Shown piece by piece: positions 2,030-24,512 of a stretch of 49,567 nt of DNA. Origin of the DNA: Gemmatimonadota bacterium (lineage in GTDB: Bacteria; Gemmatimonadota; Gemmatimonadetes; Palauibacterales; KS3-K002); the NCBI GenBank assembly GCA_039589115.1, contig JBDHHZ010000011.1, positions 1 through 49,567 on the forward strand, written 5' to 3'. The notes beneath the pieces were generated by a model. That model worked only from the letters and a program-made list of their open reading frames with translations. It had not been told where the DNA came from and did no database searches. The position numbers and the translations under genes are program-made. The first letter of the stretch is position 1. Each line of letters starts with the position of its first letter.

Positions 2030-2704
2030 TCACCCGGAGAGCGCGCGCCGCACCAGCGCGCCAACGCTGGTGCGCTCGAGCGATCCGTCTTCGTAGAGAG
2101 CGACGGGCCCCTCGTCGGAAAGCAGTTCCGACCGGTCTGCCAGGATCACCGCCTGCCCCACCTGACCCAGACACCAGACGGCCGTGCCCCGGACCTGAGG
2201 GTCAGGATCGTCCAGCGCCGACGCCACTGCCGTGTGGAGTTCCGTGAAGTAGTCTCCCGCAAGAGAGCCGAGTCGTCCTATGGCCCACAGGGCATCGGCC
2301 CTGAAATGGTCCAGGTCTTCCTCGGCCATGTTCGGGATGAGGAAGATGACGATGGGGACGTAGTCGGCAAACAGCTTCGGTTCGTGGCGAACGATCTCCG
2401 CCATCGCCGCCGGGGCATGCCAGCAGATGCCGCCGGACTCCTCACTGATCAGCCAATACAGGCGCCGCAAGTGCTCCCGCACGTAGTCGGGATCGAATTC
2501 GGAGACGCGCCGAGCCGCCACTCCCAACGCCTCGACCGCTCGCCAACCGATCTGCGGGTCCGCATCGTAGGTGAGCGACACGAGGCTTGCCAGGACGCGC
2601 CGCTTCTCGGCGGCCAGCTCGGCGATTCGCTCGAATTGCCCCTCGGCGAGCGCCTCGCGCAGGATTGTCTTGATAGGCACGTGCGCGCCTAGTGCATCTC
2701 CCAC
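2030..2704 (-). CDS. HEAT/armadillo-repeat protein of unknown function, last gene of a DsrMK-like module
   Basis: ORF 2030..2704. Helical-repeat composition with HEAT-like repeats (IGWRAVEALGV, ADALWAIGRLG, DPDPQVRGTAVWCLGQVG). The start overlaps the stop of the upstream HdrD-like gene. No catalytic motif recognised. Confidence 0.5.
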   Translation of the reverse strand: MGDALGAHVPIKTILREALAEGQFERIAELAAEKRRVLASLVSLTYDADPQIGWRAVEALGVAARRVSEFDPDYVREHLRRLYWLISEESGGICWHAPAAMAEIVRHEPKLFADYVPIVIFLIPNMAEEDLDHFRADALWAIGRLGSLAGDYFTELHTAVASALDDPDPQVRGTAVWCLGQVGQAVILADRSELLSDEGPVALYEDGSLERTSVGALVRRALSG

Positions 2705-4299
2705 TTGATGAACGGCTCTTTGACATCCACCATCGCGTTGACGATCAGCTCCACGAGACCGCCGTAGGTGATGTTGCTCTTCTCCAGAACGTCATAGTAC
2801 TGCAGCAGGTCGCGAAGCTGACCCTTGCAGTTGGAGCACGGCGCGCAGAGGTACTTCTTGACCTCCGGTCCCGGCTGGTCAGCGAACGCGTCGAGGATCT
2901 GCTTCATTTTCACTCGGCTGCCGACACTTATGCGCCAGTCCGCGAAGTTGTTGGGCGACATTACGGCGAACCCGCTTCCGCCGCCACAGCAGTAGTTGTC
3001 CACCCCGTGCGGTGTCATCTCCCGGAACTGCGGGCACAAGTACCGCAGGATACGCCGTTGTGGTTCCACGATCCCCAGGTTGCGGACGATGTTGCACGGG
3101 TCGTGTAGAGTCACCGGGAAGTCGTTCTTGGACGGGTCGAACTCGATCTTCCCACTGAATACGATCTCCTCCAGCAGCGGCAGGCAGCTCTCACGGGCCA
3201 CAGCCAAGTCACCCGTAAGGACACGATCCGAGATGGTCATCAAGGCCTTGTGCTGATGCCCGCACTCGCCGGCGACGATCTTGTTCACCTTAAGCTTCTT
3301 GGCCGCCTCGGCGTGCTTGACTGTCACGCGAGCCAGCTGGACGTCATCGTAGAACAGGCCGTAGTTGACACCGTCATAGCCAAGCCCATCCGAGGATAAG
3401 GTCCAATCGATGCCCGCCGCGTTCAGGATGATGGCAAATGCCCCGGGATTCTCGGGCCAGGCCAGAATCTCCCCGGCGTTGTGGATCAGCAGGACGTCCG
3501 CGCCTTCCTTGTCCCACGGGGTCTCCACCTTTATGCCCGTCTCGTCTTCCATGTCCTCGTCGATGAACTCGATGTTGTCCTTCACGACCACGGCGTTCAT
3601 GCCCGTTGACGAGCCCACCTCAAGCTGGAGAACGGTACCCTTCTCGTGCAGCTCCTTGGGAGCCCAACCCAGCTCCTGACTGAACAGCTTCCGCAACTCG
3701 CGACTGATCAGGCCGTTGTCGAGCCCGATGGGACAGGCTTGAGCGCAGCGCCGGCACAGCGTGCAGCGGTAGCAGAGCTCGTACAGCCGAGTGATAGTGG
3801 TCCAGTTGAGCTCGATGTCACCGTGGGTGAACCTGGCGAACAGCTTTCCACCCGGCTTGGCGTACTTGGCGACCAGCCTCCGCAATACCTCGGCGCGGTA
3901 GGTCGGCCGGTAGATCTCCTTGCGGCCGCTCGCCGTGAAGACGGGACATGCGTCGTTACAACTCTGACAGTTCACGCAGTAGTCCAGCGAGAGCAGCAGC
4001 GGCTGCAAGAACGTCCAGTTGTTGTTCTTCTCGAGCAACTTCTTCAGGCCGGCACGGAACTTCTCGACGTATTCCTCTTCCTCGGCTGCGTCCGTCGGCT
4101 TGGGGATACTCAACCCGATGACGCCGTCCAGGTTGCAGACAAGGCGCTCCTTGGTCTCGGGACTGAGCTCCTTCCAGGCCGGCTCGTGCTCAGGGTTATC
4201 GTAGGGAGGTGGGAGGGGCGCGAGGTCCTCGGGTCCCACGGGACACAGCACCTCGTCTCCCCGCTTGCTGATGTCTATCACGCGTAGCTTGGTGCTCAC
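2689..4299 (-). CDS. HdrD/DsrK-like CCG-domain iron-sulfur oxidoreductase (module a)
   Basis: ORF 2689..4371 trimmed to the GTG at 4299 (GAGGAG upstream; GTGA overlap with the stop of the membrane gene). Two 4Fe-4S motifs (CVNCQSCNDACP, CYRCTLCRRCAQACP) are followed by CCG-type Cys-rich motifs (HDPCNIVRN, NYCCGGGSG, CAPCSNC). Confidence 0.8.
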   Translation of the reverse strand: MSTKLRVIDISKRGDEVLCPVGPEDLAPLPPPYDNPEHEPAWKELSPETKERLVCNLDGVIGLSIPKPTDAAEEEEYVEKFRAGLKKLLEKNNNWTFLQPLLLSLDYCVNCQSCNDACPVFTASGRKEIYRPTYRAEVLRRLVAKYAKPGGKLFARFTHGDIELNWTTITRLYELCYRCTLCRRCAQACPIGLDNGLISRELRKLFSQELGWAPKELHEKGTVLQLEVGSSTGMNAVVVKDNIEFIDEDMEDETGIKVETPWDKEGADVLLIHNAGEILAWPENPGAFAIILNAAGIDWTLSSDGLGYDGVNYGLFYDDVQLARVTVKHAEAAKKLKVNKIVAGECGHQHKALMTISDRVLTGDLAVARESCLPLLEEIVFSGKIEFDPSKNDFPVTLHDPCNIVRNLGIVEPQRRILRYLCPQFREMTPHGVDNYCCGGGSGFAVMSPNNFADWRISVGSRVKMKQILDAFADQPGPEVKKYLCAPCSNCKGQLRDLLQYYDVLEKSNITYGGLVELIVNAMVDVKEPFIKWEMH

Positions 4300-5210
4300 G
4301 TCTTCATCTCCTCGGTTGCAACATCCACCCAGTTCTTTCTTCCGTCGGACTTCACGTGGGGCCCTGCCCACGTCACGGGCTGATTCAGGAGCCGGACGGC
4401 CTCCCGCTCCAGCCGCCCGCCCGCAGCCAGCGGCTCATCGTCCCAGCGGACCTGGTGGTACGTGAAGTACTTCGCAACGAAGTGCATCATCCGGCTGAAG
4501 GGCAGATAGGCCAGAAACAGCAGGGCCAGCAGAACATGCACGGCCAGTATGCCAGGAAGCACGACTGAAAAATCAGCGGTCAGCAGAGCTACGGCGAAAC
4601 CCGTTACCTGCCCGGCAAAAGCCTGCGAGGCCGCAAGGGCTAGCGCGCCGCTAGCGAACACGGCTAGCAGGAGGACCAGGTTGAACAGGGCCGCCGGTGT
4701 CGTATAGGCCCGGAGCCGCGGATCGGCGAAACGGCTGCCGAGCAGTCCCAGCGCCCCGATGCCGCCCAGCGCGAAGCCAACTCCGGCGAGCAGCGATACA
4801 GCATCGCGCCAGGCGCCCGAGCCCGCGCTCTCCACTCCGGCCAACTGCAGCCCGCCACCGAGCAGCAGCACGGCAGCGGCCGCTATCAACACGTACATGC
4901 CGATATGGAACGGGAAAGAGAACCACCACAGTCGGCGATTGTGCTCCCACACACTCTTGAGGAACACGATTTCCTGGAACATGAAGAACAACTCGTTGAG
5001 CCGGTCCTTCTCACGCGGCTTCGTCCACCACTCGTACTCCTCGAGGTACGAGCCGCCGTAATGGCTCTTGCCCTTCTCGTGTGGCACCGGGGCGAGCTCC
5101 CAGCGGAGATGCACCGGAAGCCTCGCTATCCTCAAAGTTCTGAGCACGAACGCCACAATGAACACCGCCAACAACGCCCACGACATCACTATCAGTATGG
5201 ATCCGGACAT
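4296..5210 (-). CDS. NarI/DsrM-like integral membrane cytochrome b subunit (module a)
   Basis: ORF 4296..5210. Multiple hydrophobic helices and a C-terminal YLPFSRMMHF motif, as in NarI/DsrM/HdrE-type quinol-interacting subunits. The start directly abuts the stop of the MerR-like gene (TAAATG). Confidence 0.7.
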   Translation of the reverse strand: MSGSILIVMSWALLAVFIVAFVLRTLRIARLPVHLRWELAPVPHEKGKSHYGGSYLEEYEWWTKPREKDRLNELFFMFQEIVFLKSVWEHNRRLWWFSFPFHIGMYVLIAAAAVLLLGGGLQLAGVESAGSGAWRDAVSLLAGVGFALGGIGALGLLGSRFADPRLRAYTTPAALFNLVLLLAVFASGALALAASQAFAGQVTGFAVALLTADFSVVLPGILAVHVLLALLFLAYLPFSRMMHFVAKYFTYHQVRWDDEPLAAGGRLEREAVRLLNQPVTWAGPHVKSDGRKNWVDVATEEMKT

Positions 5211-5732
5211 TTAAGCCTCTTCCTCCGTCGAGTATCTCTTCCGCTGCATGAGCTCCTGGATGGCTGCACCCGCATCCTGCACGTCGTTCTCGTCATGCAG
5301 CAGCTGTTTGATGTCTTCGGTGCACAACGAACCGAATCGGTACACGGCGCAACCCCGGCACTCGTTCCCCTGCGGGGCGCAGTCGAGGCCCTTGATCATC
5401 CAGCACGGCCGCGTGCTGTCCTCATAGGCGGGACAGCTCCTGCGGGTCTCCGCCGTGCACGGGAGTAGATCCCAGCACGGCAGCAGCGCCTGCACCCTGT
5501 GAATTCCCTCTATGTTGAGTCCTAGGTCCTGGATCAGATGCTGGATGTTACGGACGCGGCTGATGTCCTCATGCGAGAACAGGCGGTGGCCCGAGGGAGT
5601 GCGGTGGGCGATGATGAGGCCCTCGTTCTCGTATTTCCGCACGGCGGAAACGGAAAGCCCCACCCGTTGTGCCAGAACGCCGATGGAGATTAGCGGGTCT
5701 TCGATTTCGTGATGCGCTGGTGCGTCGGGCAC
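5211..5732 (-). CDS. MerR-family HTH regulator with C-terminal 8-Cys domain
   Basis: The N-terminus ISIGVLAQRVGLSVSAVRKYENEGLI..HR..SGHRLF is a MerR-type HTH. The C-terminal stretch PCWDLLPCTAETRRSCPAYEDSTRPCWMIKGLDCAPQGNECRGCAVYRFGSLC holds 8 Cys in about 55 aa. Confidence 0.75.
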   Translation of the reverse strand: MPDAPAHHEIEDPLISIGVLAQRVGLSVSAVRKYENEGLIIAHRTPSGHRLFSHEDISRVRNIQHLIQDLGLNIEGIHRVQALLPCWDLLPCTAETRRSCPAYEDSTRPCWMIKGLDCAPQGNECRGCAVYRFGSLCTEDIKQLLHDENDVQDAGAAIQELMQRKRYSTEEEA

Positions 5733-5784
5733 AAAAAAAGCCCTTCCGGTGCCAAGTGAGATGAACCGGTTAGGGCTACAGGAA

Positions 5785-5804
5785 TCTACAATAAACGGTG
5801 TAGA
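5785..5804. promoter_or_regulatory. Perfect 6-8-6 palindrome TCTACA-N8-TGTAGA upstream of the MerR-like gene (candidate operator)
   Basis: Read directly in the AT-richer intergenic region 5733-5932, about 55-70 bp upstream of the MerR-like start codon. An additional CTACA copy lies at 5776-5780. No promoter hexamers confidently assigned. Confidence 0.25.
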
Positions 5805-5932
5805 AAATCTATACCCAAAGCTGCGGATAGTCTTTATTGACCAAGTAGAACAGAATGGGAGGCCCGGGCCGCAAGGCCTTGTGCTGTAAAGAGATACGGA
5901 GGCGACAACTCGGAGCTACCCGGAGCCCGACC

Positions 5933-6325
5933 TCAGCCGATCAGCTCTCTGACCTTGCGCACCAACTGCTCAGCGTCGACGGGCTTGCTGATGTACCCCT
6001 CGGGTGGGGGGACCTGTCGGCGGCTGGAGATGAACCTTTCGAACTCTTCGGAGATGCCTGTGATGATGATGACGGGAACGCTCTTGAGTCGTTCGTCTTC
6101 CTTCAGCTTCCGATAGACGGCCACGCCGGACTTCTCGGGCATGGAGATGTCGAGTGCGACGAGGTCGGGCACATCCTGCTCGAGCGCCGCGATGGCTTCG
6201 ACGCCATCATTGGCGGTCGTGGTCATGAAGCCGTTGTCCTGCAACACGGTGGTGAGATACTCCCGAGCATCGGGATCATCATCCACGACCAGAACGGTCT
6301 TGGCGTCGTCAGTCATTATCCGCAT
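5933..6325 (-). CDS. Stand-alone response-regulator receiver protein
   Basis: ORF 5933..6466 trimmed to MRIMTDDAKTVLVVDDD (ATG at 6325; ATG at 6316 also possible). REC motifs present: VVDDD, LVALDISMP, IIITG, SKPV. The start overlaps the 3' end of the upstream kinase gene. Confidence 0.85.
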   Translation of the reverse strand: MRIMTDDAKTVLVVDDDPDAREYLTTVLQDNGFMTTTANDGVEAIAALEQDVPDLVALDISMPEKSGVAVYRKLKEDERLKSVPVIIITGISEEFERFISSRRQVPPPEGYISKPVDAEQLVRKVRELIG

Positions 6326-7769
6326 CCATTTCAGACGTGTTGGATTCCTCCGACTCCTGCGTCGGAGGCCGCTTGCGGGGCAGCTTAACGATGAACCGCG
6401 TTCCGGCACCGGAGTCCGACTCCAGTTCGATGGTGCCGCCGTGAGAACGCGCGATGCGATCGGCAACGAAGAGCCCCAGCCCGGTGCCCTCCATTCCCTT
6501 TGAGGAGAAGAACATCGTGAATGCCTTCTCCCGGGTTTCCTGGTCCATCCCGATGCCGTTGTCCTCGACTTCGTACTGGACGACGTCGGGGAGTCCCTGA
6601 AGCCGCACGGCTACGATGTGTTCGGGCTTCTTCCCGTCCAGCCGGCAGGCGTCCAGGGAGTTCTCGACCAGGTTCACAAGTAGCGAACGGACCGCCTGCG
6701 CATCACCCTCGAAGTCGCCGGCGGCCGTGTCGAGCTCGGTGGTCAGCTGTATCCCCTGATCTTTGGCCCGCGACTCCATGAGACCGCAAACATCCTGGGC
6801 GACTTCCATGGCGGACAGGCGCTCCCACATGGGGACGCGATCCTTCGCATAGTAGAGGATGTCCGAGACCATGCTCTGGATGCGGGCGACGTTTCGATGG
6901 ACCGTCGCCCAGCCCTTGTCGATGCGCGTCCGATCCTCTTTAGCGAACCCGGAATCGACAAGATACATGCCGCCGGCCAGCCCGTTGAGCAGACCTTTCA
7001 GGCCGTGCGACACCGAACCGACCAACAGGCCCAGCGACGTGAGGCGGTCCTCCAGCTCGCGGACCTGGGTGATGTTGGCGCTCATCTCCATCACGCCGGT
7101 GATTCGACCCTGCCGATCTCGGATGGGAGCGGCCGTCACGAGCACGTTCTGGTGCCGGCCATCGAGCGACGTGACCACCTCTTCCCGAGTATGCGGCTCG
7201 CCGTCCTCGAAGGTCTCCTGGACCGGGCAGGGGACACACGGTTCTGAGCGATGCTTGTAGATCTCGAAGCACTTGCGGCCGAGGCAGTCACCGAAGTCTT
7301 CCTGGAAGGCGCGGTTGGCCTCCACGATGTTCAAGTCGAGGTCTTGAATCGAGATGTAACAGGGCACCACGTCGAACAGGAGGTGGTAGCGACGTTGGCT
7401 CCGCCGCAGTTGACGCTCCAGGTCCCTCATGTCGGTGATGTCGGTGGACATCTCCATGACGGCCACGACCTTGCCGCTCTCGTCGCGGATCGGCGTGGCG
7501 TCTACCAGCACCGAGATCTCCCGCCCGTCCAGGCTCGTGACTCGCTCTTTGCTGCGGTGGCTCTGCCCATCGTGGAACGCTTCGGCGACCGGACAAGTCT
7601 CACACCGCTCGGAGCGCTGCTTGTAGACCTGATAGCAGAACCGGCCGTCGATATCGCCGAAATCCGTCCGGAATCGCGCGTTCGCATCGATGATCCGGAA
7701 GTCGCGGTCCTGCACCGTGAGGTAGCACGGCAGCGTGTCGAAATAGACTTGGTAGTCGTTATTCATCAC
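6309..7769 (-). CDS. Cytoplasmic PAS-PAS sensor histidine kinase, each PAS with 4 conserved Cys
   Basis: No TM segment seen. Two PAS-like repeats carry the same Cys pattern (LPCYL..RFCYQVYKQRSERCETCP and VPCYI..RKCFEIYKHRSEPCVPCP). H-box SVSHGLKG, N-box LVENSLDAC, G-boxes DNGIGMD and GTGLGL. Confidence 0.85.
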   Translation of the reverse strand: MMNNDYQVYFDTLPCYLTVQDRDFRIIDANARFRTDFGDIDGRFCYQVYKQRSERCETCPVAEAFHDGQSHRSKERVTSLDGREISVLVDATPIRDESGKVVAVMEMSTDITDMRDLERQLRRSQRRYHLLFDVVPCYISIQDLDLNIVEANRAFQEDFGDCLGRKCFEIYKHRSEPCVPCPVQETFEDGEPHTREEVVTSLDGRHQNVLVTAAPIRDRQGRITGVMEMSANITQVRELEDRLTSLGLLVGSVSHGLKGLLNGLAGGMYLVDSGFAKEDRTRIDKGWATVHRNVARIQSMVSDILYYAKDRVPMWERLSAMEVAQDVCGLMESRAKDQGIQLTTELDTAAGDFEGDAQAVRSLLVNLVENSLDACRLDGKKPEHIVAVRLQGLPDVVQYEVEDNGIGMDQETREKAFTMFFSSKGMEGTGLGLFVADRIARSHGGTIELESDSGAGTRFIVKLPRKRPPTQESEESNTSEMDADND

Positions 7770-7829
7770 GAATCCCGAGCAGATGTTGTCCCGCGCGCTA
7801 CCCCATTCTTCACTACCTCACCAAGAACT

Positions 7830-9605
7830 TCAAGGCGTGCTCTCATCTCCGGCTGCTGACTCGTCGTGGGCCAGCTCCAGGATCCTGCGAACCGTGCTCA
7901 CGAGGGCCTCTTCGGTAACCGGCTTGTCCATATAGCCCTCGGGCTTCCTGACGGAGCGGTCATAGATCAGCTTGCGCAGCTCGGGTCTACCGGTGATCAC
8001 GCAGACCTTCAAGCTCTCAAGCTCCGGATCCTTGCGCAGAATCTCGTACACCTCGCCGACGTTTCTGCCGGGCATTTCGAGGTCGAGCGTCAACAGGTCT
8101 GGCTTCTCGCTACAGGCCATCGCCAGGGCCTCGTCGCCATTAGTGGCCCGCAGCACCGTGGCACCGTTATCCTCGAAGACCGTCGCCAGGTACTCGAGCT
8201 GATCGGGCTCGTCGTCGGCTACTAGCAATGTACGGCCGGCCAGCGGCAGCGCCTCGGCAACCACCTCTACCACCTCCTCGACTGGAATCGCCACCTTCGG
8301 CTCGATAACGAGGGCGTTCGCCACCAGGTTGACCAGCTGCGAAACCTCGATACCCAACTCGTAGTGCCTGATAACGTCAGTCAGGCCGTCGACACAGTTG
8401 TGACACGACGTGACGACGATCTCGGCGCCGGTCTCCTTCAGCTGGTTCGCCTTGATGACGCCCGACTTGAGCCGCCGCCCCGTGTACTCCGACATCGACA
8501 TAGCACCACCACCGCCCGTGCAACAGTAGTTCTCGGCGCGGTTCGGATACATCTCGCGAAAGTCGCTACACACCAACTGGAGCAGCTCGCGGGGCTCCTC
8601 GAACAGGCCGCAACTGCGGCCCATGTTGCAGGAGTCGTGATAAGTGACGGGCCTGGAGTTGCGGCTCTTGTCCACCTTGATCCGCCCTTCCTTGATGTAG
8701 CGGAGCATGGTGAAGATAGAACTCTCCATTACGAAAGGCACGTCGTACTTGGCCCAGTTGGGGCCCTCGCAGCGAGTCGATCGGTAGCCGTGGCCGCACT
8801 CCGAAATGACGAGCTGCTTTCCGCGAAGCTCGACCACCTTCTCGTACAGCCGCTGGGCGACGGAGCCGCCCAGATCGTCGTCGCCGGAGAACAGCCCGAA
8901 GTTGGTCATGTCCCAGCCCTCGCTGGCCATGGTCCACTTCTCTCCGGCCATGTGGAAGATCTTGGCCGCGTCCGCGATGGTGCGCGGGTCGTACTTCACC
9001 TCGCGCGGGTTGATGGAGTAGACCACATCGCAGTCGAACTGGTCGATCGGAATATCGGCCTCCGGGTCGTCCAGCTCGTCCTGCATCTCCTCCGCCATCC
9101 ACTCGAGCGTGTCTAGGTACTCCTCTTTGAGCACGCCCATCTGGTTGCCTATCTCCCACTGGTCCTTGCTGACGACGGCCACGCCTTCGGGCATGACCCC
9201 GACCGAGACAAGGAGACCCCGCGCCATCCGGTTGAACGTGGCCAAATCGACGCCCATCGGGCAGTTCAGGGAGCAACGCCGGCAATTGGTGCACTTGCCG
9301 AACACGGTATCCTTCAATTCCTCCAATTCCTCATCGGTCCAGACGCTGCCGGCCTTCACCCACCAGGGGAACACCCGACCCGTCCAATCGAAATGGCGCT
9401 TGAACAGCTTGCGGACCAGGTCGCCTTTGTATGCGGGGGCATAGGTCGGGTCGCCGGGATTGGCCAGGACGTAGTGACAGGACTCGGTACACAGGCCGCA
9501 GTGCACACAGGCCAGCAGCGAGCCCGCCATCTGCCGGTTCAGCTTCTGGCCCATCCGCTCGAGGACCTTCTCAGCCTTCAGGGATCTAGTATTCGCGTTG
9601 CTCAT
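7830..9605 (-). CDS. HdrD/DsrK-like CCG-domain iron-sulfur protein fused to a C-terminal receiver (REC) domain (module b)
   Basis: The N-terminal part has 2x4Fe-4S motifs (CVHCGLCTESCH, CTNCRRCSLNCPMG) and CCG motifs (YHDSCNMGRSCG, NYCCTGGGGA, TSCHNC). The last ~125 aa (about 7833-8210) form a complete REC: LLVADDEPD, LLTLDLEMPG, VCVITG, MDKPV. Confidence 0.8.
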   Translation of the reverse strand: MSNANTRSLKAEKVLERMGQKLNRQMAGSLLACVHCGLCTESCHYVLANPGDPTYAPAYKGDLVRKLFKRHFDWTGRVFPWWVKAGSVWTDEELEELKDTVFGKCTNCRRCSLNCPMGVDLATFNRMARGLLVSVGVMPEGVAVVSKDQWEIGNQMGVLKEEYLDTLEWMAEEMQDELDDPEADIPIDQFDCDVVYSINPREVKYDPRTIADAAKIFHMAGEKWTMASEGWDMTNFGLFSGDDDLGGSVAQRLYEKVVELRGKQLVISECGHGYRSTRCEGPNWAKYDVPFVMESSIFTMLRYIKEGRIKVDKSRNSRPVTYHDSCNMGRSCGLFEEPRELLQLVCSDFREMYPNRAENYCCTGGGGAMSMSEYTGRRLKSGVIKANQLKETGAEIVVTSCHNCVDGLTDVIRHYELGIEVSQLVNLVANALVIEPKVAIPVEEVVEVVAEALPLAGRTLLVADDEPDQLEYLATVFEDNGATVLRATNGDEALAMACSEKPDLLTLDLEMPGRNVGEVYEILRKDPELESLKVCVITGRPELRKLIYDRSVRKPEGYMDKPVTEEALVSTVRRILELAHDESAAGDESTP

Positions 9606-9644
9606 CGGGTCGTCTTCCCTTTCCGTCGGCGTGTGCTCGCCAAC

Positions 9645-10313
9645 CTATCCACGCCGGACCGGGTATACTCCCCGGTAACCCATGGTTTTGCCCAGGTAAT
9701 AGCGCGTGAAGGGGTAGTAGAGGTAGTGGGATATCTTGCTGAACGGCACATAGACCAGGAAGAAGGCCGTCAGGATGAAATAGCCCAGCAGGTGCCACTC
9801 GCCGCCGGCGATCTGGTTCGGCACCGCCAGCACCGCGAAGAAGAACCACGTCGTCAGCAGCACCAGCGAGAAGTAGTCGTCCGGCGAGCTGATCGCACGC
9901 ATATACGGACTGCCGACCCGCCGGATGATTCTGATCACCCCGACCAGGAAGGCCGCGCCGATCACGATCTGCAGGATCAGCACGACGGCTCGACTCTCGA
10001 GCAGGCCCGGCCAGTACGGGATGACGAACGATAGGGCGATGGCGGCGGTCACCCCGATGTGGAACGCCGCGAACTGGACATAGATCAAGTAGTGCCGTCG
10101 TGTGCTCTCCATCGCCCAGGGCATGGCGATATTCGCCCAAGAATACAGGATGCCCTTGGCCGGGGTGGTGTTCGGCGGACCGGTCGCCGCCTGGCGCTCG
10201 CCGCCGGCCTTGAAGCCGAAGAGCCATAGGATGCGGATCGTATAGACCAGGGCCATGAATCCCAGGGCGACCTCTTGCAGCGTATGCTCGGAGAAGTGTA
10301 GCAGCTCGCTCAT
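9645..10313 (-). CDS. NarI/DsrM-like integral membrane cytochrome b subunit (module b)
   Basis: Hydrophobic multi-helix protein ending in VYVPFSKISHYLYYPF, comparable to the YFPFSKLAHM of the canonical DsrM in this window. The start overlaps the macro-domain stop (ATGA). Confidence 0.7.
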   Translation of the reverse strand: MSELLHFSEHTLQEVALGFMALVYTIRILWLFGFKAGGERQAATGPPNTTPAKGILYSWANIAMPWAMESTRRHYLIYVQFAAFHIGVTAAIALSFVIPYWPGLLESRAVVLILQIVIGAAFLVGVIRIIRRVGSPYMRAISSPDDYFSLVLLTTWFFFAVLAVPNQIAGGEWHLLGYFILTAFFLVYVPFSKISHYLYYPFTRYYLGKTMGYRGVYPVRRG

Positions 10314-10852
10314 GGCGTATTCTCTATTTGGGCCTTGAAAGCGTCGTATTGGCTAGTGTCCAACACGCAGATGACGACTTCCTTGATTGCGGTCTCACCC
10401 TCCAAGTGACCCCTGATCACTTCGAGCATCACCCGGGCACAAAGACCCGGCGCGATCCCGTAATACCCCGCACCCATAGCCGGAAAGGCGATCCGCCCGA
10501 CAGCTATCTCCTCGGCGCGTTTCAGGGAGTTGAGAACCGTCGTTCGCAGCTTGCCTTGCGTATCCTCTTCCTGAAACCGGGGGCCGACTGCGTGGATGAT
10601 GTGCTGGGCTTTGAGGTTCCCTGCCGCGGAGACCACAGCCTCGCCGTTTGCGACCGGGCCCAGCTGCTCCAGTTCCTTCTGGACCGTGGGCCCGCCTCGC
10701 ACGGAGATCGCCCCTCCGAATCCCGTACCGAGAGCCAGATCGGGCTGGGCGTAGAACACGAAGGCGTCAACGTCGAGGTCTGTGATGTCGTCTTTGATGA
10801 GGCGTAAGACGCTCTGATTTATCTGTAAGCCCTCCTCAACTGCCTTGGTCAC
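10310..10852 (-). CDS. Macro-domain protein (ADP-ribose binding / de-ADP-ribosylating family)
   Basis: ORF 10310..10891 trimmed to the GTG at 10852, which follows a strong SD (GGGAGGG, 4-nt spacer). Macro-like motifs: LIKDDITDLDVDAFV, GFGGAI, IIHAVGPRF, IAFPAMGAGYYG. Confidence 0.7.
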   Translation of the reverse strand: MTKAVEEGLQINQSVLRLIKDDITDLDVDAFVFYAQPDLALGTGFGGAISVRGGPTVQKELEQLGPVANGEAVVSAAGNLKAQHIIHAVGPRFQEEDTQGKLRTTVLNSLKRAEEIAVGRIAFPAMGAGYYGIAPGLCARVMLEVIRGHLEGETAIKEVVICVLDTSQYDAFKAQIENTP

Positions 10853-10968
10853 TGCGCCCTCCCTTTTGCTTTGCGGAGTCCAACCTCGCACCGTATGCCT
10901 TCGAGACCCTCCGACTTCCCCGAATCACCTTCGAAACTCTCCGACCGGCGTTCTCCGGGTTCCACATC

Positions 10969-11616
10969 TCATCCATAGAACGGCAAGCCCGCCACCCGGC
11001 ACGCCCCCCGCCGATACCCGGCCGGAAATAGCTCTCGCAGCTCATCGAGGCTCAGGTCGTTGGCGGAGCAAGCCTCGTAGACTGTCGGGAGCATTCGGTT
11101 GGCGACGTAGTAGTCGCGCAAGTAACGCACGATCTGCAGGTGCCTCTCCGTCGTCACGACCGGCGGTTCCCTCTGCGACATGGCCAGCTCGACGAAGTCT
11201 TCATCCCACTCCTCGAAGTTCTCGAGGAATCCCAATTCGTCCAGTCCATAGCGCGGCTTTGCGGGAGGCGCAGTCTCGTACGTGAGCCAGTAGTTCGTCT
11301 CCCACATGAACTTGTAGTTGATGCCGGCGACCTTGCAGGCGCCCCGATGGTATCCGGTAGGAAACAGCGAGCGCAGCTCCGAGAGCCGCATGTGATTGTC
11401 CGCGCACGCCATGACGAGCACCGGCACGGTGTTCTCGTCGAGGAACTTGTGCCGCAGATAATTGATGAGCTGCCAGTGCCGTTCCGTGAGCCCCGACGCA
11501 ACCCCCACCAGCTTCGCCATTCCTTCGGCGAAGTCCTCTTCCCACTGCTCCGGCGGGTCCAAGAACCCGTAGGCGTCCAGCTGGTAGGTCTTGCCCTTGA
11601 ACGCTACTGAACTCAT
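10969..11616 (-). CDS. Tandem (two-domain) DsrC/TusE-like protein lacking the C-terminal CysA
   Basis: Two DsrC-family repeats in one 215-aa ORF. Repeat 1 ends ...LFPTGYHRGACKVAGINYKF and repeat 2 ends ...LFPAGYRRGACRVAGLPFYG-stop. Both keep the GAC(K/R)VAG position (CysB) but lack the terminal PKPTGCV arm of the canonical DsrC at 27754..28071. Confidence 0.8.
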   Translation of the reverse strand: MSSVAFKGKTYQLDAYGFLDPPEQWEEDFAEGMAKLVGVASGLTERHWQLINYLRHKFLDENTVPVLVMACADNHMRLSELRSLFPTGYHRGACKVAGINYKFMWETNYWLTYETAPPAKPRYGLDELGFLENFEEWDEDFVELAMSQREPPVVTTERHLQIVRYLRDYYVANRMLPTVYEACSANDLSLDELRELFPAGYRRGACRVAGLPFYG

Positions 11617-11631
11617 TTGTTGCTACCTATC

Positions 11632-11654
11632 TTGAAGTCAAACGGCGACTTCAA
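11632..11654. promoter_or_regulatory. Inverted repeat TTGAAGTC-N7-GACTTCAA between the regulator gene and the tandem dsrC-like gene
   Basis: 8-bp perfect arms read directly. Lies 16-38 nt upstream of the tandem DsrC-like start codon and about 40 nt downstream of the regulator stop. Could be an RNA hairpin or a protein-binding palindrome; no U-tract follows. Confidence 0.3.
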
Positions 11655-11692
11655 AGAAGGTCTGAAGGCCACATCAACCGGTGGCTTGCGGC

Positions 11693-12484
11693 CTATGCAG
11701 CGTCGCCCGCCGCTCTGCGACTGGCGCCCGCAACGCTATCGACTAGCTGTTCGATCTGCTCTGCCGTCAGAGGGGCACTCAGGGTGGGCGCGGAGAGTTG
11801 CCCTACGACCTCTTCGTCCACCGCACGACGTGCCACAAAGACCTTCACCCCGGGAATTCGGTCATCCCGGATGATGGACTCCAACAGGCTGCCGTCGCTC
11901 ACCTCAGGCAGCTCGCTATCCAGCACCACCACGGCGGGGCGAAACGTCCCGATCAGCGTGGAGCTTTCATACCCAGATCGGGCGAACTGCAGGGAGACCC
12001 TGTCCGCGTCCGTGTCTTTCTCGAGCCGGCGGGTCAATGCCTCGTCCCGAGTGATCACCAAAACGGTCATCGCCATGCCGTGACAGGCCCTATAAAACGG
12101 GCAGTCCAAGCAATCAGTCTTGCAGAAGTCATGCCTGTGCCCGGCCTCCCTCCCCAGTTCGGCCAGCCTGTAGCAGTACTGTGCCCGGGCCTGGTAGACC
12201 AGGCAATTCCGGCAGCTTTCGGGTGGAGCGCCCGGCTGCCCGAAGTACTCCCAACAGCGCTGTGGGACTCCATCCCCGTTCCCTCGATCGGCGGTCGCGC
12301 CAACAGGATCCTCGCCGTTCGAGTCGCAAAGACCCAGGGCAGTACAGGCCTCTCGAGAGACCCGGTAGTGTCCACCGGCGGTGCGGGTCGCCGGCAGCCT
12401 GCCCTTCTTGATCCACTTCAGCACGGCGTCTGGTGTGACGCCGCAGAGCTTGGCCACCTCGCCTGTACTGAGCATAGAACCCAT
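11693..12484 (-). CDS. Excisionase/MerR-superfamily HTH regulator with central 8-Cys domain and C-terminal receiver-like domain (paralogue 1)
   Basis: ORF 11693..12553 trimmed to ATG 12484 (MGSMLSTGEVAKLCGVTPDAVLKWIKKGRL..GGHYRV); the trim is supported by the putative promoter at 12544-12572. Cys block RCWEYF..SCRNCLVYQ..YCY..FCKTDCLDCPFYRAC. Receiver-like tail VLVITRDE..VVVLDSE. Confidence 0.7.
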   Translation of the reverse strand: MGSMLSTGEVAKLCGVTPDAVLKWIKKGRLPATRTAGGHYRVSREACTALGLCDSNGEDPVGATADRGNGDGVPQRCWEYFGQPGAPPESCRNCLVYQARAQYCYRLAELGREAGHRHDFCKTDCLDCPFYRACHGMAMTVLVITRDEALTRRLEKDTDADRVSLQFARSGYESSTLIGTFRPAVVVLDSELPEVSDGSLLESIIRDDRIPGVKVFVARRAVDEEVVGQLSAPTLSAPLTAEQIEQLVDSVAGASRRAAGDAA

Positions 12485-12543
12485 AATGCAAATTCGATGG
12501 TTTATGGATTTTCTTGACATCTCGCATAAATCGCCTGCTGAGA

Positions 12544-12572
12544 ATTCTACCAAAATTTGGCGGTTCTGTCAA
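12544..12572 (-). promoter_or_regulatory. Putative sigma70-type promoter for regulator paralogue 1 (TTGACA-N17-TAGAAT)
   Basis: The minus strand reads TTGACA (12572-12567), a 17-nt spacer, then TAGAAT (12549-12544). This sits about 60 bp upstream of the ATG at 12484. The -35 is embedded in the 9-bp repeat TTCTTGACA, which recurs inverted at 12511-12519. Confidence 0.4.
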
Positions 12573-12697
12573 GAACAGTTCGCGTTCCAGACGGGGTCTG
12601 GGTCGGCGATTTCCTAGATGTTACTTAATGATACTCGTTCTCGACTGAGCTGGTCTTCGGTTCGAGGGCACCTCAAATTTTTGCGTTTTCTTGCTCA

Positions 12698-12726
12698 TTG
12701 ACTCCTGAGAGCCGCGTATGTATTTT
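12698..12726 (+). promoter_or_regulatory. Putative sigma70-type promoter for regulator paralogue 2 (TTGACT-N17-TATTTT)
   Basis: TTGACT at 12698-12703, a 17-nt spacer, TATTTT at 12721-12726, about 55 bp upstream of the ATG at 12781. Preceded by TTTTCTTG (12686-12693), a motif shared with the divergent promoter. Confidence 0.35.
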
Positions 12727-12780
12727 ATGCAATCAGGGTGGTCGGGAAATGCGGTACCCCATAAAAGCCATACCTGCGCC

Positions 12781-13590
12781 ATGAAGCAGCAGAAAGACGG
12801 TACCTGGCTAACCACCGGGCAAGCTGCCAGGCTTTGCTCGGTCACTTCCGATACTGTCCTCAAGTGGATAAAGAAGGGGTCGCTCAAGGCCGTGCGCACG
12901 GCGGGCGGCCACTATCGCATCAGACGCCAGGAGCTCGCACCCCTCCTCACGTTAGGCCGGACCTCGCGGATTTTCCCGGACAGGACGAGCAGCGCGCCGC
13001 AGCAGTTGCGGTGTTGGGAGTACTTCAGCCGCGGAGGCGCCATCAGGGAAGAATGCGAGGCGTGCGCGGTCTACCGCGCGCGGGCTTCGCGGTGCTTCCG
13101 GATGGCGACGATGGGACCTGACATCGGCCACGCTCGTCAATTCTGCCAGACATCCTGCGACGATTGTGTCTACTTCCAGCGGCTGAGCGGACAGCCGACA
13201 AAGGTGCTCGTTGTCACGTCGGACTCTGATCTCGTTCAGCGGCTGAAGAGTCATGAGTCAGAGGGGATGGAGTTGCGCTTCGCGCGGAACGCCTACGAAG
13301 CCTCGGCTGTGGTGCAGGCTTTCCTGCCGGGCTTCGCGGTGGTCGACCAGGACGCGTTTCCGGGCGGTGACTACGGACTGCTGGAGAACCTGGCGAACGA
13401 CCCCCGCCTTCCGGGTCTGAAGATCATCGTAGCGGTGCAGCGCGGTGAGGATCAGCGACTGGGCAACTTACAGGATGGACATTTCGTATCTCGAGTGATT
13501 GAAAAGCCGTTCGGTTCGGAGGAGATCGCGGCCGTGATCGACGGTTTTCCGGTGGGATCGGTTGAGATGGAGAGATTGGGCAACGTCTGA
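12781..13590 (+). CDS. Excisionase/MerR-superfamily HTH regulator with central 7-Cys domain and C-terminal receiver-like domain (paralogue 2)
   Basis: ORF 12718..13590 trimmed to ATG 12781 (MKQQKDGTWLTTGQAARLCSVTSDTVLKWIKKGSL..GGHYRI). Cys block RCWEYF..ECEACAVYR..RCF..FCQTSCDDCVYFQ. Receiver-like tail VLVVTSDSD..FAVVDQD..EKPF. Confidence 0.7.
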   Translation: MKQQKDGTWLTTGQAARLCSVTSDTVLKWIKKGSLKAVRTAGGHYRIRRQELAPLLTLGRTSRIFPDRTSSAPQQLRCWEYFSRGGAIREECEACAVYRARASRCFRMATMGPDIGHARQFCQTSCDDCVYFQRLSGQPTKVLVVTSDSDLVQRLKSHESEGMELRFARNAYEASAVVQAFLPGFAVVDQDAFPGGDYGLLENLANDPRLPGLKIIVAVQRGEDQRLGNLQDGHFVSRVIEKPFGSEEIAAVIDGFPVGSVEMERLGNV

Positions 13591-13604
13591 CAACGGGGGT
13601 AACA

Positions 13605-13922
13605 GTGAGCCCAGTGAATCGGGAAGTTTTAGAAGCCAGTAGCGATGAGGACGGGTTCCTCAAGGCTATGGCGAACTGGGATCGAGCGACGGCCGAGACC
13701 CTCGCCGAGCTGCACAATATCGGTGAGCTCACGGACGAGCACTGGATGGTGATCGAGTTCGTGCAAGAGTATTACGCGACCTACGGCACAGGGCCGCCGG
13801 TGGTGAAGGTGCACAAGGAGACCGGGCTGACGTCGGAAGAGATCTGCCAGCTGTTCCCTTGCGGCATGGTGAAGGGGGCATACCGGCTAGCCGGACTCCC
13901 ACGCCCGCCCGGCTGCGCCTGA
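13605..13922 (+). CDS. DsrC/TusE-like protein with CysA only (CysB replaced by Tyr, extra Cys upstream)
   Basis: 105-aa DsrC-family ORF with a GTG start. The C-terminus LFPCGMVKGAYRLAGLPRPPGCA compares with the canonical LFPSGPAKGACKVAGLPKPTGCV at 27754..28071. Confidence 0.8.
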   Translation: MSPVNREVLEASSDEDGFLKAMANWDRATAETLAELHNIGELTDEHWMVIEFVQEYYATYGTGPPVVKVHKETGLTSEEICQLFPCGMVKGAYRLAGLPRPPGCA

Positions 13923-13961
13923 GCGCCGAGTGGTAGTGACGCCACTCTAGAAAGGAACGAC

Positions 13962-14681
13962 ATGGACTTCGTGAGTTTGATGTTGGGCGGAATTCTGCCC
14001 TACGTAGCGGTCGCGGTGTTCATCGTGGCCATGGCCTACCGCATCTATACGTGGAAGAGACTCGCGGCGCCCTCGATGACGCTGTTCCCGGCGCCGGCCG
14101 ATGAGAAAGCCAACAGGCGAAACGTGGTCAAAGAGGCCCTGCTGTTCCGGAGCTTGTTCGGAGGCGACCGGCTGCTGTGGGGATTCGCTTGGATGTTCCA
14201 CGCGGTGTTGGCTTTGATCGTTCTGGGGCACTTTCGCGTCTTCACGAACGTGGACGGGACCCTGATGACGATGGGGATGAGCGAAGGGGCAATCCAGGCC
14301 ATGTCCGGCGGCGCGGGTGGAGCAGCCGGTGTGGTGATACTGGTCGCGACGATTCTGTTGTTAGTTCGGAGGTTGGCGCTGCCGCGCGTCCGCGAGGTCA
14401 CGGGTTCGGCCGACTATCTCGCCCTGCTGCTGATCGCGGCCATCATCGTGACCGGCAACATGATGCGGTTCGGGGCCGAGCACTTCGACCTAACCCTGAC
14501 GCGGCAGTACTTCGCCAGTCTGGCGACCTTCGGGGGTGTCATGGATGAGGCCGCCTTGCAGAACAACGTGTTCGTAGTCCACATGAGCCTGGCGTTCCTG
14601 CTGATCATGATCATCCCATTCAGCAAGATCCTCCATTTCGGCGGGATCTTCTTCACGCATCAGCTCATCCGGAAGCATTGA
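13962..14681 (+). CDS. NarI/DsrM-like integral membrane cytochrome b subunit (module c)
   Basis: Hydrophobic multi-helix protein with a C-terminal IIPFSKILHFGGIFF motif as in DsrM/NarI-type subunits. Directly followed by an HdrD-like gene. Confidence 0.7.
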   Translation: MDFVSLMLGGILPYVAVAVFIVAMAYRIYTWKRLAAPSMTLFPAPADEKANRRNVVKEALLFRSLFGGDRLLWGFAWMFHAVLALIVLGHFRVFTNVDGTLMTMGMSEGAIQAMSGGAGGAAGVVILVATILLLVRRLALPRVREVTGSADYLALLLIAAIIVTGNMMRFGAEHFDLTLTRQYFASLATFGGVMDEAALQNNVFVVHMSLAFLLIMIIPFSKILHFGGIFFTHQLIRKH

Positions 14682-14694
14682 GGCGGAGGCGAGG

Positions 14695-16026
14695 ATGTCC
14701 GAAAACAATGTGAAAGAGCAAGTTGTCGACTCTATCAATGCCATCAAAGATGGCCCCCGTGCGATGCGGATGTATATGGAGATGTGCGTCAAGTGCGGGA
14801 CGTGCGCATCGGTCTGCCCGGTGTACTACGGCAAGAGCGAGAAGCGCTACAACCCAGCGGAGCGCACCGACCTGATCCGCCGCATCTACCGCAAGTACAA
14901 CACGCTCAGTGGGAAGTTGTTCGGGAGGTTCGCCGGAGCGGAGGACTTCGACCCGGCGGACATCGATGACTGGCAGACGATCTTCTACGAGTGCACCGGT
15001 TGCCGCCGCTGCGCCATGTTCTGCCCTTTCGGTATCGATCACTCGGTCATCACGCGGAAGGGCCGCGCGATCCTGGACAAGGTCGGTATGACGCCTGAGA
15101 CGATGGCGAGAGTGGTTCAGGTCTCGCTAGAGACGGGGAACACGGACGGCGCCGGGGAGGCGGCGTTCCGGGCAGCGATCGACTTCCTCGAAGAGGAGAT
15201 GAACGACGAGCACGGCATCGACATCAAGATTCCGATCGACGCGAAAGGCGCGGAGTACTTCTATGTCCCACCCTCCGGCGATGTGCTTGTCAACCCGGAG
15301 GCCACGATGGGCGTCGCCAAGGTGTTCCACGCCCTTGGGATGGCGGACCGCTGGACCATGAGCTCCAAGTGCTTCGACGGGGCCAACTACGGGCTGTTCA
15401 CCGGTAACGACGGCGACATGAAGGCCGATAACAAGCTCTATGTGGAGGAAGCCAAGGAGCTAGGCACCAAGGTCATGTTGATGGGCGAGTGCGGCCACGC
15501 GTATCGGATCATGAAGATGATGATGGAGAAGACCGGCTGGTGGGGTGAGCTGCCCTTCGAGATCGTCAACTGCATGGAATGGACCGCCGATCACATCAGG
15601 AACGGCCAGCTCGAGTTCGACAAGTCCCAGAACCAACAGCCCGTCACCTACCACGACCCGTGCAACTTCGGACGTTCTTGTGGCATCACCGAGGAGCCGC
15701 GGGTCATTCTAGAGGCCTCTTGCGCCGACTTCCGAGAGATGCATCCCAACCGCGGCGAGAACTGGTGCTGCGGCGGCGGCGGTGGGCTGTCGGCGATGGA
15801 CGATATCATAGAGTTCCGGATGGAGATCTCCGGTACGAAGAAGCTGGAGCAGATCCGCGAGACCGGGGCCACCTATGTGTCCACCGCCTGCTCCAACTGC
15901 AAGCGCCAGCTGACGCAGTTGCTCGAGCATCACGAGGAGCAGATCGAGGTCGGGGGCGTTCACGACATGCTCTCCCGCTCGATTCTCATCAACGGGAAGG
16001 CCGCGGAAAGGGAGGAGTACGTGTAG
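14695..16026 (+). CDS. HdrD/DsrK-like CCG-domain iron-sulfur oxidoreductase (module c)
   Basis: 2x4Fe-4S motifs (CVKCGTCASVCP, CTGCRRCAMFCPFG) plus CCG motifs (YHDPCNFGRSCG, NWCCGGGGG, TACSNCKRQL). Confidence 0.8.
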   Translation: MSENNVKEQVVDSINAIKDGPRAMRMYMEMCVKCGTCASVCPVYYGKSEKRYNPAERTDLIRRIYRKYNTLSGKLFGRFAGAEDFDPADIDDWQTIFYECTGCRRCAMFCPFGIDHSVITRKGRAILDKVGMTPETMARVVQVSLETGNTDGAGEAAFRAAIDFLEEEMNDEHGIDIKIPIDAKGAEYFYVPPSGDVLVNPEATMGVAKVFHALGMADRWTMSSKCFDGANYGLFTGNDGDMKADNKLYVEEAKELGTKVMLMGECGHAYRIMKMMMEKTGWWGELPFEIVNCMEWTADHIRNGQLEFDKSQNQQPVTYHDPCNFGRSCGITEEPRVILEASCADFREMHPNRGENWCCGGGGGLSAMDDIIEFRMEISGTKKLEQIRETGATYVSTACSNCKRQLTQLLEHHEEQIEVGGVHDMLSRSILINGKAAEREEYV

Positions 16027-24131: not shown

Positions 24132-24512
24132 TCAGAGATCCTCGGGCTCTATGTGGCAGCTCCAGCAGCGCGGTGCGACGTTGGAATAGTCGTGGCACCG
24201 GGTGCAGAACGCCTCACGGTTGTCGTGACAGTCCATGCAGGTCCCCGTGAGGCTAATGCTGTAGGTCTCACCTGATGTCGACGTGTACTCAGTCTCTCCC
24301 TCGCGGACCACCGCGTTGCGCCACTGGTTCAGCAGCTCCATGTGCCGCGCGCTCATGTACTCGGTGTCTTCGACGCACTGCGTCTCGTCCTCGGGCAGCT
24401 CGAGCTCGGGGCGGCCAGCCTCATCAGCCGCTACCAGCGTCTGCCACATGGGGAACGCCGCCAGGATCAGAACGGCGGCCAAGCCTGTCAGGGCCTTCGC
24501 TCTATCACCCAT
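24132..24512 (-). CDS. dsrJ: DsrJ, membrane-anchored periplasmic trihaem cytochrome c
   Basis: ORF 24132..24539 trimmed to MGDRAKALTGLAAVLILAAF (ATG 24512, overlaps the dsrK stop). Three CXXCH motifs: CMDCH, CTRCH, CWSCH. Confidence 0.85.
   Translation of the reverse strand: MGDRAKALTGLAAVLILAAFPMWQTLVAADEAGRPELELPEDETQCVEDTEYMSARHMELLNQWRNAVVREGETEYTSTSGETYSISLTGTCMDCHDNREAFCTRCHDYSNVAPRCWSCHIEPEDL

Follow-up and report, generated by a model that had tools for sequence, protein, structure and literature searches.

Two families of helix-turn-helix regulators with conserved cysteine blocks head accessory DsrMK-type units in a Gemmatimonadota dsr supercluster

Introduction

The general idea of a MerR-superfamily regulator with a Cys-based metal or redox sensor is already known, and its classic example is SoxR, in which a MerR-type helix-turn-helix (HTH) is followed by a Cys cluster, a precedent for a transcriptional switch based on an Fe-S cluster. 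Little is understood of how dissimilatory sulfur metabolism is regulated, especially in uncultured dsr-bearing Gemmatimonadota, Acidobacteriota and Planctomycetota, and it is unclear why one organism should carry several DsrMK/HmcEF-type paralogues. Here we describe three regulator genes, at 5211-5732 (minus strand), 11693-12484 (minus strand) and 12781-13590 (plus strand), in a 49,567-nucleotide (nt) stretch of an uncultured Gemmatimonadota bacterium (contig JBDHHZ010000011.1; hereafter the window) that is filled by a dsr supercluster. Judged by sequence, the three fall into two families, which we call A (5211-5732) and B (paralogue 1, 11693-12484; paralogue 2, 12781-13590). The architecture of these proteins, the conservation of their cysteines, the autonomy of the Cys-rich domain, its gene linkage and fusions, and the conserved promoter-proximal repeats are established below. 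The best overall explanation, which we regard as modestly probable, is that both families are transcription factors whose metal-binding "two-C[W/F]" sensor domain controls the accessory units that they head.

By its DNA-binding domain, family A resembles the TnrA/GlnR subgroup of MerR proteins (with HspR and CarH). The best Foldseek match of its AlphaFold2 (AF2) model is the GlnR-DNA complex 4r4e_B (40% identity, rmsd 1.7 Å), followed among the top matches by TnrA and RacA; as in GlnR, a long coiled-coil is absent, and the sensor part would lie at the C-terminus. Unlike members of that subgroup, family A ends in a block of eight cysteines rather than in a glutamine-synthetase-binding tail or a B12 domain, and its NCBIfam equivalog scores are all below cut-off. 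In the AF2 model, which is of low confidence beyond residue 85, the Cys block begins at residue 85, right after a helix at 74-82, leaving no canonical MerR/CueR/SoxR coiled-coil helix. Membership of SoxR itself (TIGR01950) was rejected: family A scores 39.6 bits against a cut-off of 116.9, over the HTH only, has eight cysteines where SoxR has four, and lacks both the coiled-coil and the [2Fe-2S] motif C-x2-C-x-C-x5-C (CIGCGC-x5-C).

The HTH of family B is of the excisionase/BldC type according to Pfam and NCBIfam profiles, with BldC its second-best NCBIfam match after TIGR01764. Membership of BldC (NF033787) was likewise rejected, at 37.0 and 43.2 bits for the two paralogues against a cut-off of 77; BldC is a 68-residue protein consisting of the HTH only, whereas family B adds a Cys domain and a receiver. 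Small Cys-rich modules in which a metal site is the redox sensor are found in RsrA/ZAS (Hx3Cx2C) and WhiB-like (C-xn-C-x2-C-x5-C) proteins, patterns that we take to be resembled by the Cx3Cx2C and C-x13-C-x2-C-x9-C spacings of family B. Nevertheless, a Pfam scan at E up to 1 detected no sequence similarity to these modules over the block, and the domain context is different. Among proposed regulators of dsr genes, those of the DsrC/RspA type tie a DsrC-family protein to sulfur gene control, and here too a DsrC-like protein is adjacent or fused to family B; the DNA-binding part of family B, however, is a separate HTH_17 domain, and the DsrC-like part, in which CysA is kept, would more likely be a signal carrier.

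The closest curated model to the block of family A is the "two-CW domain" NF045718, which shares with it two Cys-Trp dipeptides in a Cys-rich block and aligns to residues 85-132. Where the cut-off is 35 bits, the window protein reaches 14.6 bits (E 0.032), and 63 of 70 family A members match below threshold, the best at E 0.0018; alignment of the 80-position model to family A takes a large gap, and no function for it was found in the literature. For family B, NF045718 gave no match at E up to 1 with the two window proteins and does not appear among the 25 families listed when 150 members were scanned. Its accession falls in a series (NF045711-NF045724) of models for the Desulfovibrio proteins HmcE/HmcF and TmcB/TmcC and the DVU0259 receiver, an unverified hint that the model derives from the hmc/tmc neighbourhood, which would match the genomic setting of the window. 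Specific membership of SoxR, canonical MerR, BldC, the canonical receiver or, at its cut-off, the two-CW domain thus fails in every case on score or motif.

Two regulator families with conserved cysteine blocks

A first-pass annotation, made from the DNA alone, had proposed that three regulators combine an HTH of the MerR superfamily with a dense Cys block. The three open reading frames and the peptide strings quoted from them are exact, and the start codons match the gene calls of orthologues in other assemblies (173, 263 and 269 residues). Their HTH profiles exceed curated cut-offs and their cysteines are strictly conserved, which bears out the proposed combination. In family A (173 residues), a GlnR/TnrA-like MerR winged HTH (wHTH; residues 13-83) is followed by the eight-Cys block and C-terminal helices; the HTH passes the Pfam gathering thresholds of MerR_1 (55.2 bits, cut-off 21.6) and MerR (45.4 bits, cut-off 28.2; PF13411/PF00376). 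Family B paralogues 1 and 2 pass Pfam MerR (39.1 and 31.1 bits, cut-off 28.2), HTH_17 (PF12728; 41.6 and 43.3 bits, cut-off 27) and the excisionase model TIGR01764 (44.1 and 49.5 bits, cut-off 28.8). The implied kinship of all three regulators holds in part: paralogues 1 and 2 are 40% identical over 254 residues (E 4e-62), but the family A protein is no paralogue of either, with marginal BLASTP matches between the families (E 1e-4 to 0.02).

The family A block (5322-5477, minus strand; residues 86-137) has the pattern CW-x4-C-x7-C-x9-CW-x6-C-x6-C-x2-C-x8-C, with cysteines at positions 86, 92, 100, 110, 118, 125, 128 and 137. The dense Cys string that had drawn attention to it is real, but its count needs correction: five cysteines in the quoted string plus three others make eight, not the nine implied by four more. 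Among 651 homologues of family A, the 120 best share 72-99% identity; in these, all eight cysteines are at least 97% conserved, the dipeptides C86-W87 and C110-W111 are both 100% conserved, and residues of the HTH are among the best conserved positions. The family B blocks lie at 12092-12256 (minus strand; residues 77-131) in paralogue 1 and at 13012-13176 (plus strand; residues 78-132) in paralogue 2, where the pattern is CW-x12-C-x2-C-x9-CF-x15-C-x3-C-x2-C and the seven cysteines are residues 78, 92, 95, 105, 122, 126 and 129. Over 274 unique instances of the domain, including representatives of clusters at no more than 50% identity, the seven cysteines are 96-100%, the Trp 99% and His117 66% conserved. 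With one CW (99%) and one C[F/Y], family B matches the two-CW description only in part. Homologues of the Cys blocks number in the hundreds and come from several phyla; conservation of the cysteines across homologues was the point on which the original claim could most directly have failed, and their invariance leaves it standing.

The two blocks are probably distant relatives. A first hhalign comparison matched only 13 columns, around ECxxCxVYR, at 77% probability; with richer alignments the blocks aligned co-linearly over 51 columns at 88% probability. Half 2 of the family A block matched half 1 of family B at 94.7%, and the two halves of family B matched each other at 63%. Because these figures are single pairwise E-values on Cys-biased sequence, homology between the blocks of A and B is likely rather than proven. 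Both look like duplications of a half-unit with the common grammar C-[W/F/Y]-x(n)-C-(x2-C)-x-[V/A/Y]-[Y/F].

An exhaustive hidden Markov model search with the 65-column family B block found 227 clusters at E ≤0.001. Most of these proteins have the order HTH-block-receiver and about 240-290 residues, and some, of about 135 residues, consist of HTH and block only, with no receiver. The block occurs twice in tandem in P0293, P0366 and P0389 and three times in P0272, and in P0296 (505 residues) it stands at the C-terminus of a protein without an HTH; a 1716-residue match was rejected as a low-complexity artefact. The family B block is an autonomous, repeatable domain, present in one to three copies. 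When the family A block alone served as query in a word-index protein search, the 21 matches were all short fragments of family A itself, and no further architecture came up.

The earlier remark that no characterised family could be named for the block also stands. Pfam and NCBIfam scans at permissive E-values (Pfam E up to 1) placed no model over the family B block, neither block profile retrieved a relative from PDB sequences (E up to 10), and no description of the two-CW domain, of these regulators or of the Desulfovibrio tmc neighbours was found in the literature. The family B block thus has no curated model, no solved structure related by sequence and no paper found. The AF2 model of paralogue 2, with an overall predicted local distance difference test score (pLDDT) of 88.6 and values of 82-92 over the block, places short helices around the cysteines.

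An atypical receiver domain in family B

Both paralogues had been described as carrying receiver-like C-terminal domains, and a CheY-like fold is indeed present, although at a sub-threshold level in Pfam: they score 13.3 and 13.4 bits against the PF00072 threshold of 30.2 bits, and 21 of 150 family B members match PF00072 at E ≤0.01. In paralogue 2 the domain spans 13198-13545 (plus strand) and is modelled as a (beta-alpha)5 CheY-like fold with pLDDT above 90. Foldseek matches of the whole-protein models fall mainly on the receiver domain and the HTH; for the receiver, TM-scores are about 0.7-0.8 (normalised to target), the model gives 224 PDB matches at E ≤0.001, and the top 50 matches listed are almost all receiver domains or response regulators. 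The phospho-acceptor D189 is kept and is 99% conserved (93% in a diverse set), as are K242 (95%) and P243 (98%). By these residues the family B receiver is atypical, and phosphorylation is possible. The locus encodes one PAS-PAS kinase and four receiver-bearing proteins, and the kinase (6309-7769) is a candidate source of phosphoryl groups for these receivers.

Linkage to accessory DsrMK-type units

Three accessory units accompany the canonical dsr genes of the window: A and B1 on the minus strand and B2 on the plus strand. Each regulator had been placed first in, or directly upstream of, a DsrM-like/DsrK-like pair. Each does head a co-directional unit of a NarI-type cytochrome b and an HdrD/DsrK-type protein, but the pair of paralogue 1 is nearer to HmcEF/TmcBC and is separated from the regulator by two genes. 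The proposed tie between the regulators and paralogous DsrMK-type modules recurs in about 100 independent loci.

For family A, 65 metagenome loci were compared, 51 of them with at least 300 nt downstream of the regulator. All 51 have a DsrMK-type unit directly after family A in the same orientation: DsrM1-DsrK1 in 44, Macro-DsrM2-DsrK-REC in six and a DsrK3-like protein in one. The stop codon of family A and the start codon of the next gene often abut or overlap across loci, and in one locus (L003) the three-gene cassette sits amid an otherwise unrelated neighbourhood.

For family B, the block alignment retrieved 58 loci from species-representative genomes, mostly of Gemmatimonadota but also of Pirellulaceae, Myxococcota, Acidobacteriota and one "Elusimicrobia" metagenome-assembled genome (MAG). 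The regulator adjoins a DsrC-like/DsrM3/DsrK3 or a Macro-DsrM2-DsrK-REC unit in 47 of the 58. Ahead of Macro-DsrM2-DsrK-REC in Pirellulaceae-type loci, family A takes the place of family B (L028, L064, L066, L080, L088, L091, L104 and L114), often overlapping the first gene, and this looks like a non-orthologous swap in which the two families substitute for one another between lineages. At least 18 protein clusters join family B and a DsrC-like protein in one polypeptide, a hint that the signal involves the sulfur carrier itself.

Promoters and candidate operators

A candidate family A operator (5783-5813, minus strand) lies about 70-80 nt upstream of the GTG start and consists of the palindrome TATAGA-TTT-TCTACA (5799-5813) and a third half-site, TGTAGATT (5783-5790). 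The 15-bp palindrome recurs in orthologous loci with both arms changed in step (TGTAGA/TCTACA, AGTAGC/GCTACT, GTATAG/CTATAC), and a third half-site of the form T[A/G]TAG[A/C]TT follows it 8-10 bp downstream in these loci. The palindrome pattern has a single match in the window, but at least one match was found in 25 of 100 shuffles; because one match is not rare in shuffles, support for this operator comes from its conservation across loci. The box of TnrA is TGTNA-N7-TNACA, which the form TGTAG-N5-CTACA of the candidate operator recalls, in keeping with the structural similarity of the family A HTH to GlnR and TnrA.

The two family B genes diverge from the 296-bp intergenic region 12485-12780. 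The window (49.6 kb) has seven CATAAA/TTTATG hexamers, four of them in this region. Paralogue 1 is preceded by a sigma-70-like promoter (12544-12572, minus strand; TTGACA-17-TAGAAT, 11 of 12 matches) that is conserved in related loci, and paralogue 2 by another (12698-12726, plus strand; TTGACT-17-TATTTT), whose -35 and -10 elements are conserved in L004, L005 and L006. In the leader of paralogue 1, a candidate operator is formed by the inverted pair TTTATG-N18-CATAAA (12501-12530). A second pair, TTTATG-N30-CATAAA (12724-12765), stands before paralogue 2, where it overlaps the -10 element, contains the conserved CCATAAAAGCC and ends 15 nt before the ATG. Both pairs end 15-16 nt before the start codons, two matches where none is expected by chance. 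Eight related loci conserve the pair that stands before paralogue 2. CATAAA, like the proximal CCATAAAA[G/C]CC element, lies upstream of 31 of 65 family B genes for which paralogue 2 was the assigned query (1.3% expected), and these genes span Gemmatimonadota, Pirellulaceae, Bryobacterales and the "Elusimicrobia" MAG.

We read the TTTATG/CATAAA pairs and the family A palindrome as putative operators for autoregulation. An RNA hairpin formed by TTTATG...CATAAA is unlikely, with a stem of only six A/U-rich pairs and, before paralogue 2, a left arm that lies upstream of the likely transcription start because it overlaps the -10 element. A search of 5000-14000 against Rfam returned no RNA family matching the region or the leader motifs.

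Proposed mechanism and alternatives

DNA binding at the repeats, the metal content, the nature of the signal and phosphotransfer are what we infer from these observations. The Cys blocks of A and B would be variants of one small, uncharacterised metal-binding domain, and each regulator would bind the repeats in its own promoter or leader and so control the operon that it heads. Such operons encode what may be an accessory DsrMK- or HmcEF-type, quinone-linked thiol/disulfide module with a DsrC-like partner. The block would hold one or more Fe-S clusters most likely, or alternatively a zinc thiolate, and its redox or ligation state would report on the thiol, sulfane-sulfur or redox status of the cytoplasm; in family B, the nearby PAS kinase may add a second input by phosphorylating the receiver. 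A redox-active metal centre is favoured because all cysteines are invariant, because of the CxxC and Cx3Cx2C spacings, and because of the link to Fe-S and thiol redox machinery. As to its chemistry, a rough judgement rather than a computed one makes an Fe-S cluster the leading, still tentative choice, a zinc thiolate a more doubtful one and a metal-free thiol switch improbable.

Several observations weigh against this explanation. The metal in the Cys block is our inference, and the block of family A is modelled at low confidence (pLDDT 55-69); that of family B has an odd number of cysteines, seven, and the only nearby His is just 66% conserved. Upstream of family A, no sigma-70 promoter with a 16-18 bp spacer was found, and a canonical MerR promoter with a 19-bp spacer fits the window, L028 and L064 but is not conserved in all loci. 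In the family B leaders, CCATAAAAGCC lies in transcribed sequence near the start codon and could act on RNA or translation instead. The receiver may not be phosphorylated, because the conserved Thr and half of the acidic pocket are lost: the acidic pair is reduced to T/S-x-D148, with one acidic residue, and the Thr/Ser position is mostly Ala218. Finally, 11 family B genes, all from Acidobacteriota (Bryobacterales, Solibacteraceae and Terriglobia), stand outside a DsrMK context, and the four that were inspected (L044, L050, L056 and L024, around 7700-8600) have unrelated neighbours, so family B is not restricted to DsrMK control. The genes around such orphans in Acidobacteriota include those for an aldo-keto reductase, sugar transport and isomerase functions, menaquinone synthesis and a multihaem cytochrome.

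The alternative that fares best, unlikely yet deserving a serious hearing, is that the Cys blocks are purely structural zinc, oligomerisation or scaffold modules and that signals enter elsewhere, through receiver phosphorylation in family B and through a partner protein in family A; this partner might be a DsrC-like protein or a DsrK-like subunit, as glutamine synthetase is for TnrA and GlnR. In its favour, small zinc domains typically show CxxC knuckles together with invariant aromatic residues. Moreover, the wHTH of family A has no long MerR dimerisation helix and so needs some other device to dimerise, the family B receiver keeps its acceptor Asp with a conserved kinase nearby, and the DsrC-like fusions suggest protein-protein signalling. 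However, in the short family B members that have no receiver the block must be either the sole input or an oligomerisation device, tandem triplication would be odd in a purely structural module, and the fact that the blocks are associated exclusively with thiol/disulfide redox modules argues for redox activity.

Quite improbable, in our view, is that the blocks are metal-free thiol switches, in which sulfane sulfur would produce disulfides, persulfides or polysulfide bridges that alter DNA binding, as in SqrR, CstR and BigR. For this speak the genomic setting, which is sulfur metabolism, and the fused or adjacent DsrC-like partners, whose C-terminal Cys is reactive. Known persulfide sensors, however, use two or three cysteines, whereas these blocks hold seven or eight within 52 residues, every one of them invariant and with CxxC and Cx3Cx2C in the pattern of metal ligation. 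That the proteins are not primarily transcription factors at all, but Fe-S carriers, maturation factors or electron-transfer accessory subunits of DsrMK-type complexes that have kept an HTH, is very improbable: abutting stop and start codons in unit A, where translational coupling to DsrM would mirror stoichiometric assembly, and an identity among the best family A matches that is extreme for a regulator speak for it, but the strong conservation of the HTH, closest structures that are DNA complexes, conserved operator-like repeats upstream and the eleven family B members far from any DsrMK unit speak against it.

Within our preferred explanation, that of a metal-binding sensor controlling the accessory units, a more specific and rather improbable version deserves mention. 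An Fe-S cluster with an open or exchangeable site, formed by Cx3Cx2C and the partly conserved His, would be ligated or modified by the C-terminal Cys of the cognate DsrC-like protein, or by its persulfide or trisulfide, such that the regulator reads the sulfur load of a DsrC-family carrier and switches on the matching DsrMK module. If this were true, it would be the first transcription factor to sense the flux of dissimilatory sulfite metabolism via DsrC. The concept of a Cys-rich redox-sensing regulator is not surprising in itself, and the function proposed here is a putative one. Nevertheless, a compact, widespread and unannotated Cys-rich domain on simple DNA-binding domains, tightly linked to spare modules and DsrC-like partners and with candidate operators identified, offers a testable handle on how uncultured phyla regulate dissimilatory sulfur metabolism and on the presence of several such paralogues in one organism. 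Should it prove to be an Fe-S or zinc-thiolate sensor, it would constitute a new sensory domain family that merits a Pfam entry, and the conditions that induce each accessory module would become experimentally testable.

Accessory units and other features of the locus

The gene order of the window is the same in CP070812.1, the closest complete genome. Its canonical dsr genes pass NCBIfam equivalog cut-offs or are clear by Pfam. They include those for DsrC (27754-28071, minus strand), with both Cys present, DsrM (26169-27155; 461 bits against NF038037, cut-off 300) and DsrK (24505-26172; 711 bits against NF045796, cut-off 400), and the window also encodes DsrO, DsrP, DsrA, DsrB, a DsrL-like protein and a CbiA/DsrN-like protein. 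The accessory M and K proteins all fall short of these DsrM and DsrK cut-offs, so "DsrMK-like" is the right wording for them.

In unit A, the regulator is the first gene, and its stop codon abuts the start of the gene for a DsrM-like, NarI-type cytochrome b (4296-5210, minus strand), recognised by Pfam Nitrate_red_gam and with no NCBIfam DsrM score. A DsrK-like HdrD/CCG protein follows (2689-4299, minus strand), with a DsrK score of 332.6 bits and Pfam matches to Fer4_8 and CCG. Unit B2 is compact: downstream of paralogue 2 (269 residues; HTH_17, seven-Cys block and receiver-like domain) lie genes on the plus strand for a DsrC-like protein (13605-13922; Pfam DsrC and TIGR03342), a DsrM-like cytochrome b (13962-14681; DsrM 100.5 bits) and a DsrK-like protein (14695-16026; DsrK 368.6 bits).

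Unit B1, all on the minus strand, is longer. Between paralogue 1 (263 residues, with the same three domains) and its redox pair lie genes for a tandem double DsrC-like protein (10969-11616; two stretches of Pfam DsrC) and a Macro-domain protein (10310-10891). The pair itself is closer to HmcEF/TmcBC than to DsrMK and comprises an HmcE/TmcC-like membrane cytochrome b (9645-10313; HmcE/TmcC 44 bits) and an HmcF/TmcB/DsrK-like CCG protein fused to a receiver domain (7830-9605; HmcF 332, TmcB 311 and DsrK 250.4 bits). The Macro-domain gene, whose product would bind or hydrolyse ADP-ribose, overlaps the start of the cytochrome b gene and is invariably present in B1-type units of other genomes, an unexpected partner for a membrane redox module. 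The receiver of the CCG fusion is C-terminal, and its best NCBIfam receiver match is of the DVU0259 type. It is followed by the PAS-PAS histidine kinase (6309-7769), which has C-x10-C-x2-C in each PAS and is syntenic in other loci; next comes a single-domain response regulator (5933 to about 6320). The three genes in this order are syntenic in dozens of loci, an arrangement that suggests control of a respiratory subunit by phosphorylation.

The three DsrC-family proteins of the window (10969-11616, 13605-13922 and 27754-28071) differ in their Cys complement. Of the two Cys positions, the double DsrC-like protein retains CysB alone, and it lacks the C-terminal arm, while the DsrC-like protein of unit B2 keeps CysA, has Tyr at the CysB position and carries an extra Cys in FPCG; the C-terminus of this DsrC-like partner is very conserved, ...LFPCGMVKGAYRLAGLPRPPGC[A/G/V], its penultimate Cys being CysA. 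A gene for a DsrL-like NAD(P)H oxidoreductase (17673-19355, minus strand) adjoins dsrAB and an ATP sulfurylase-like gene (28537-29802, minus strand) adjoins dsrC; because of these two neighbours, either metabolic direction is possible, and the locus could serve sulfite/sulfate reduction or else sulfur oxidation. Downstream of the paralogue 1 stop codon and ahead of the double DsrC-like gene (11620-11665, minus strand) are two small hairpins, GCCACC...GTGGC and GAAGTC...GACTTC; they are partly conserved in related loci and could act as an attenuator, a processing site or a further operator.

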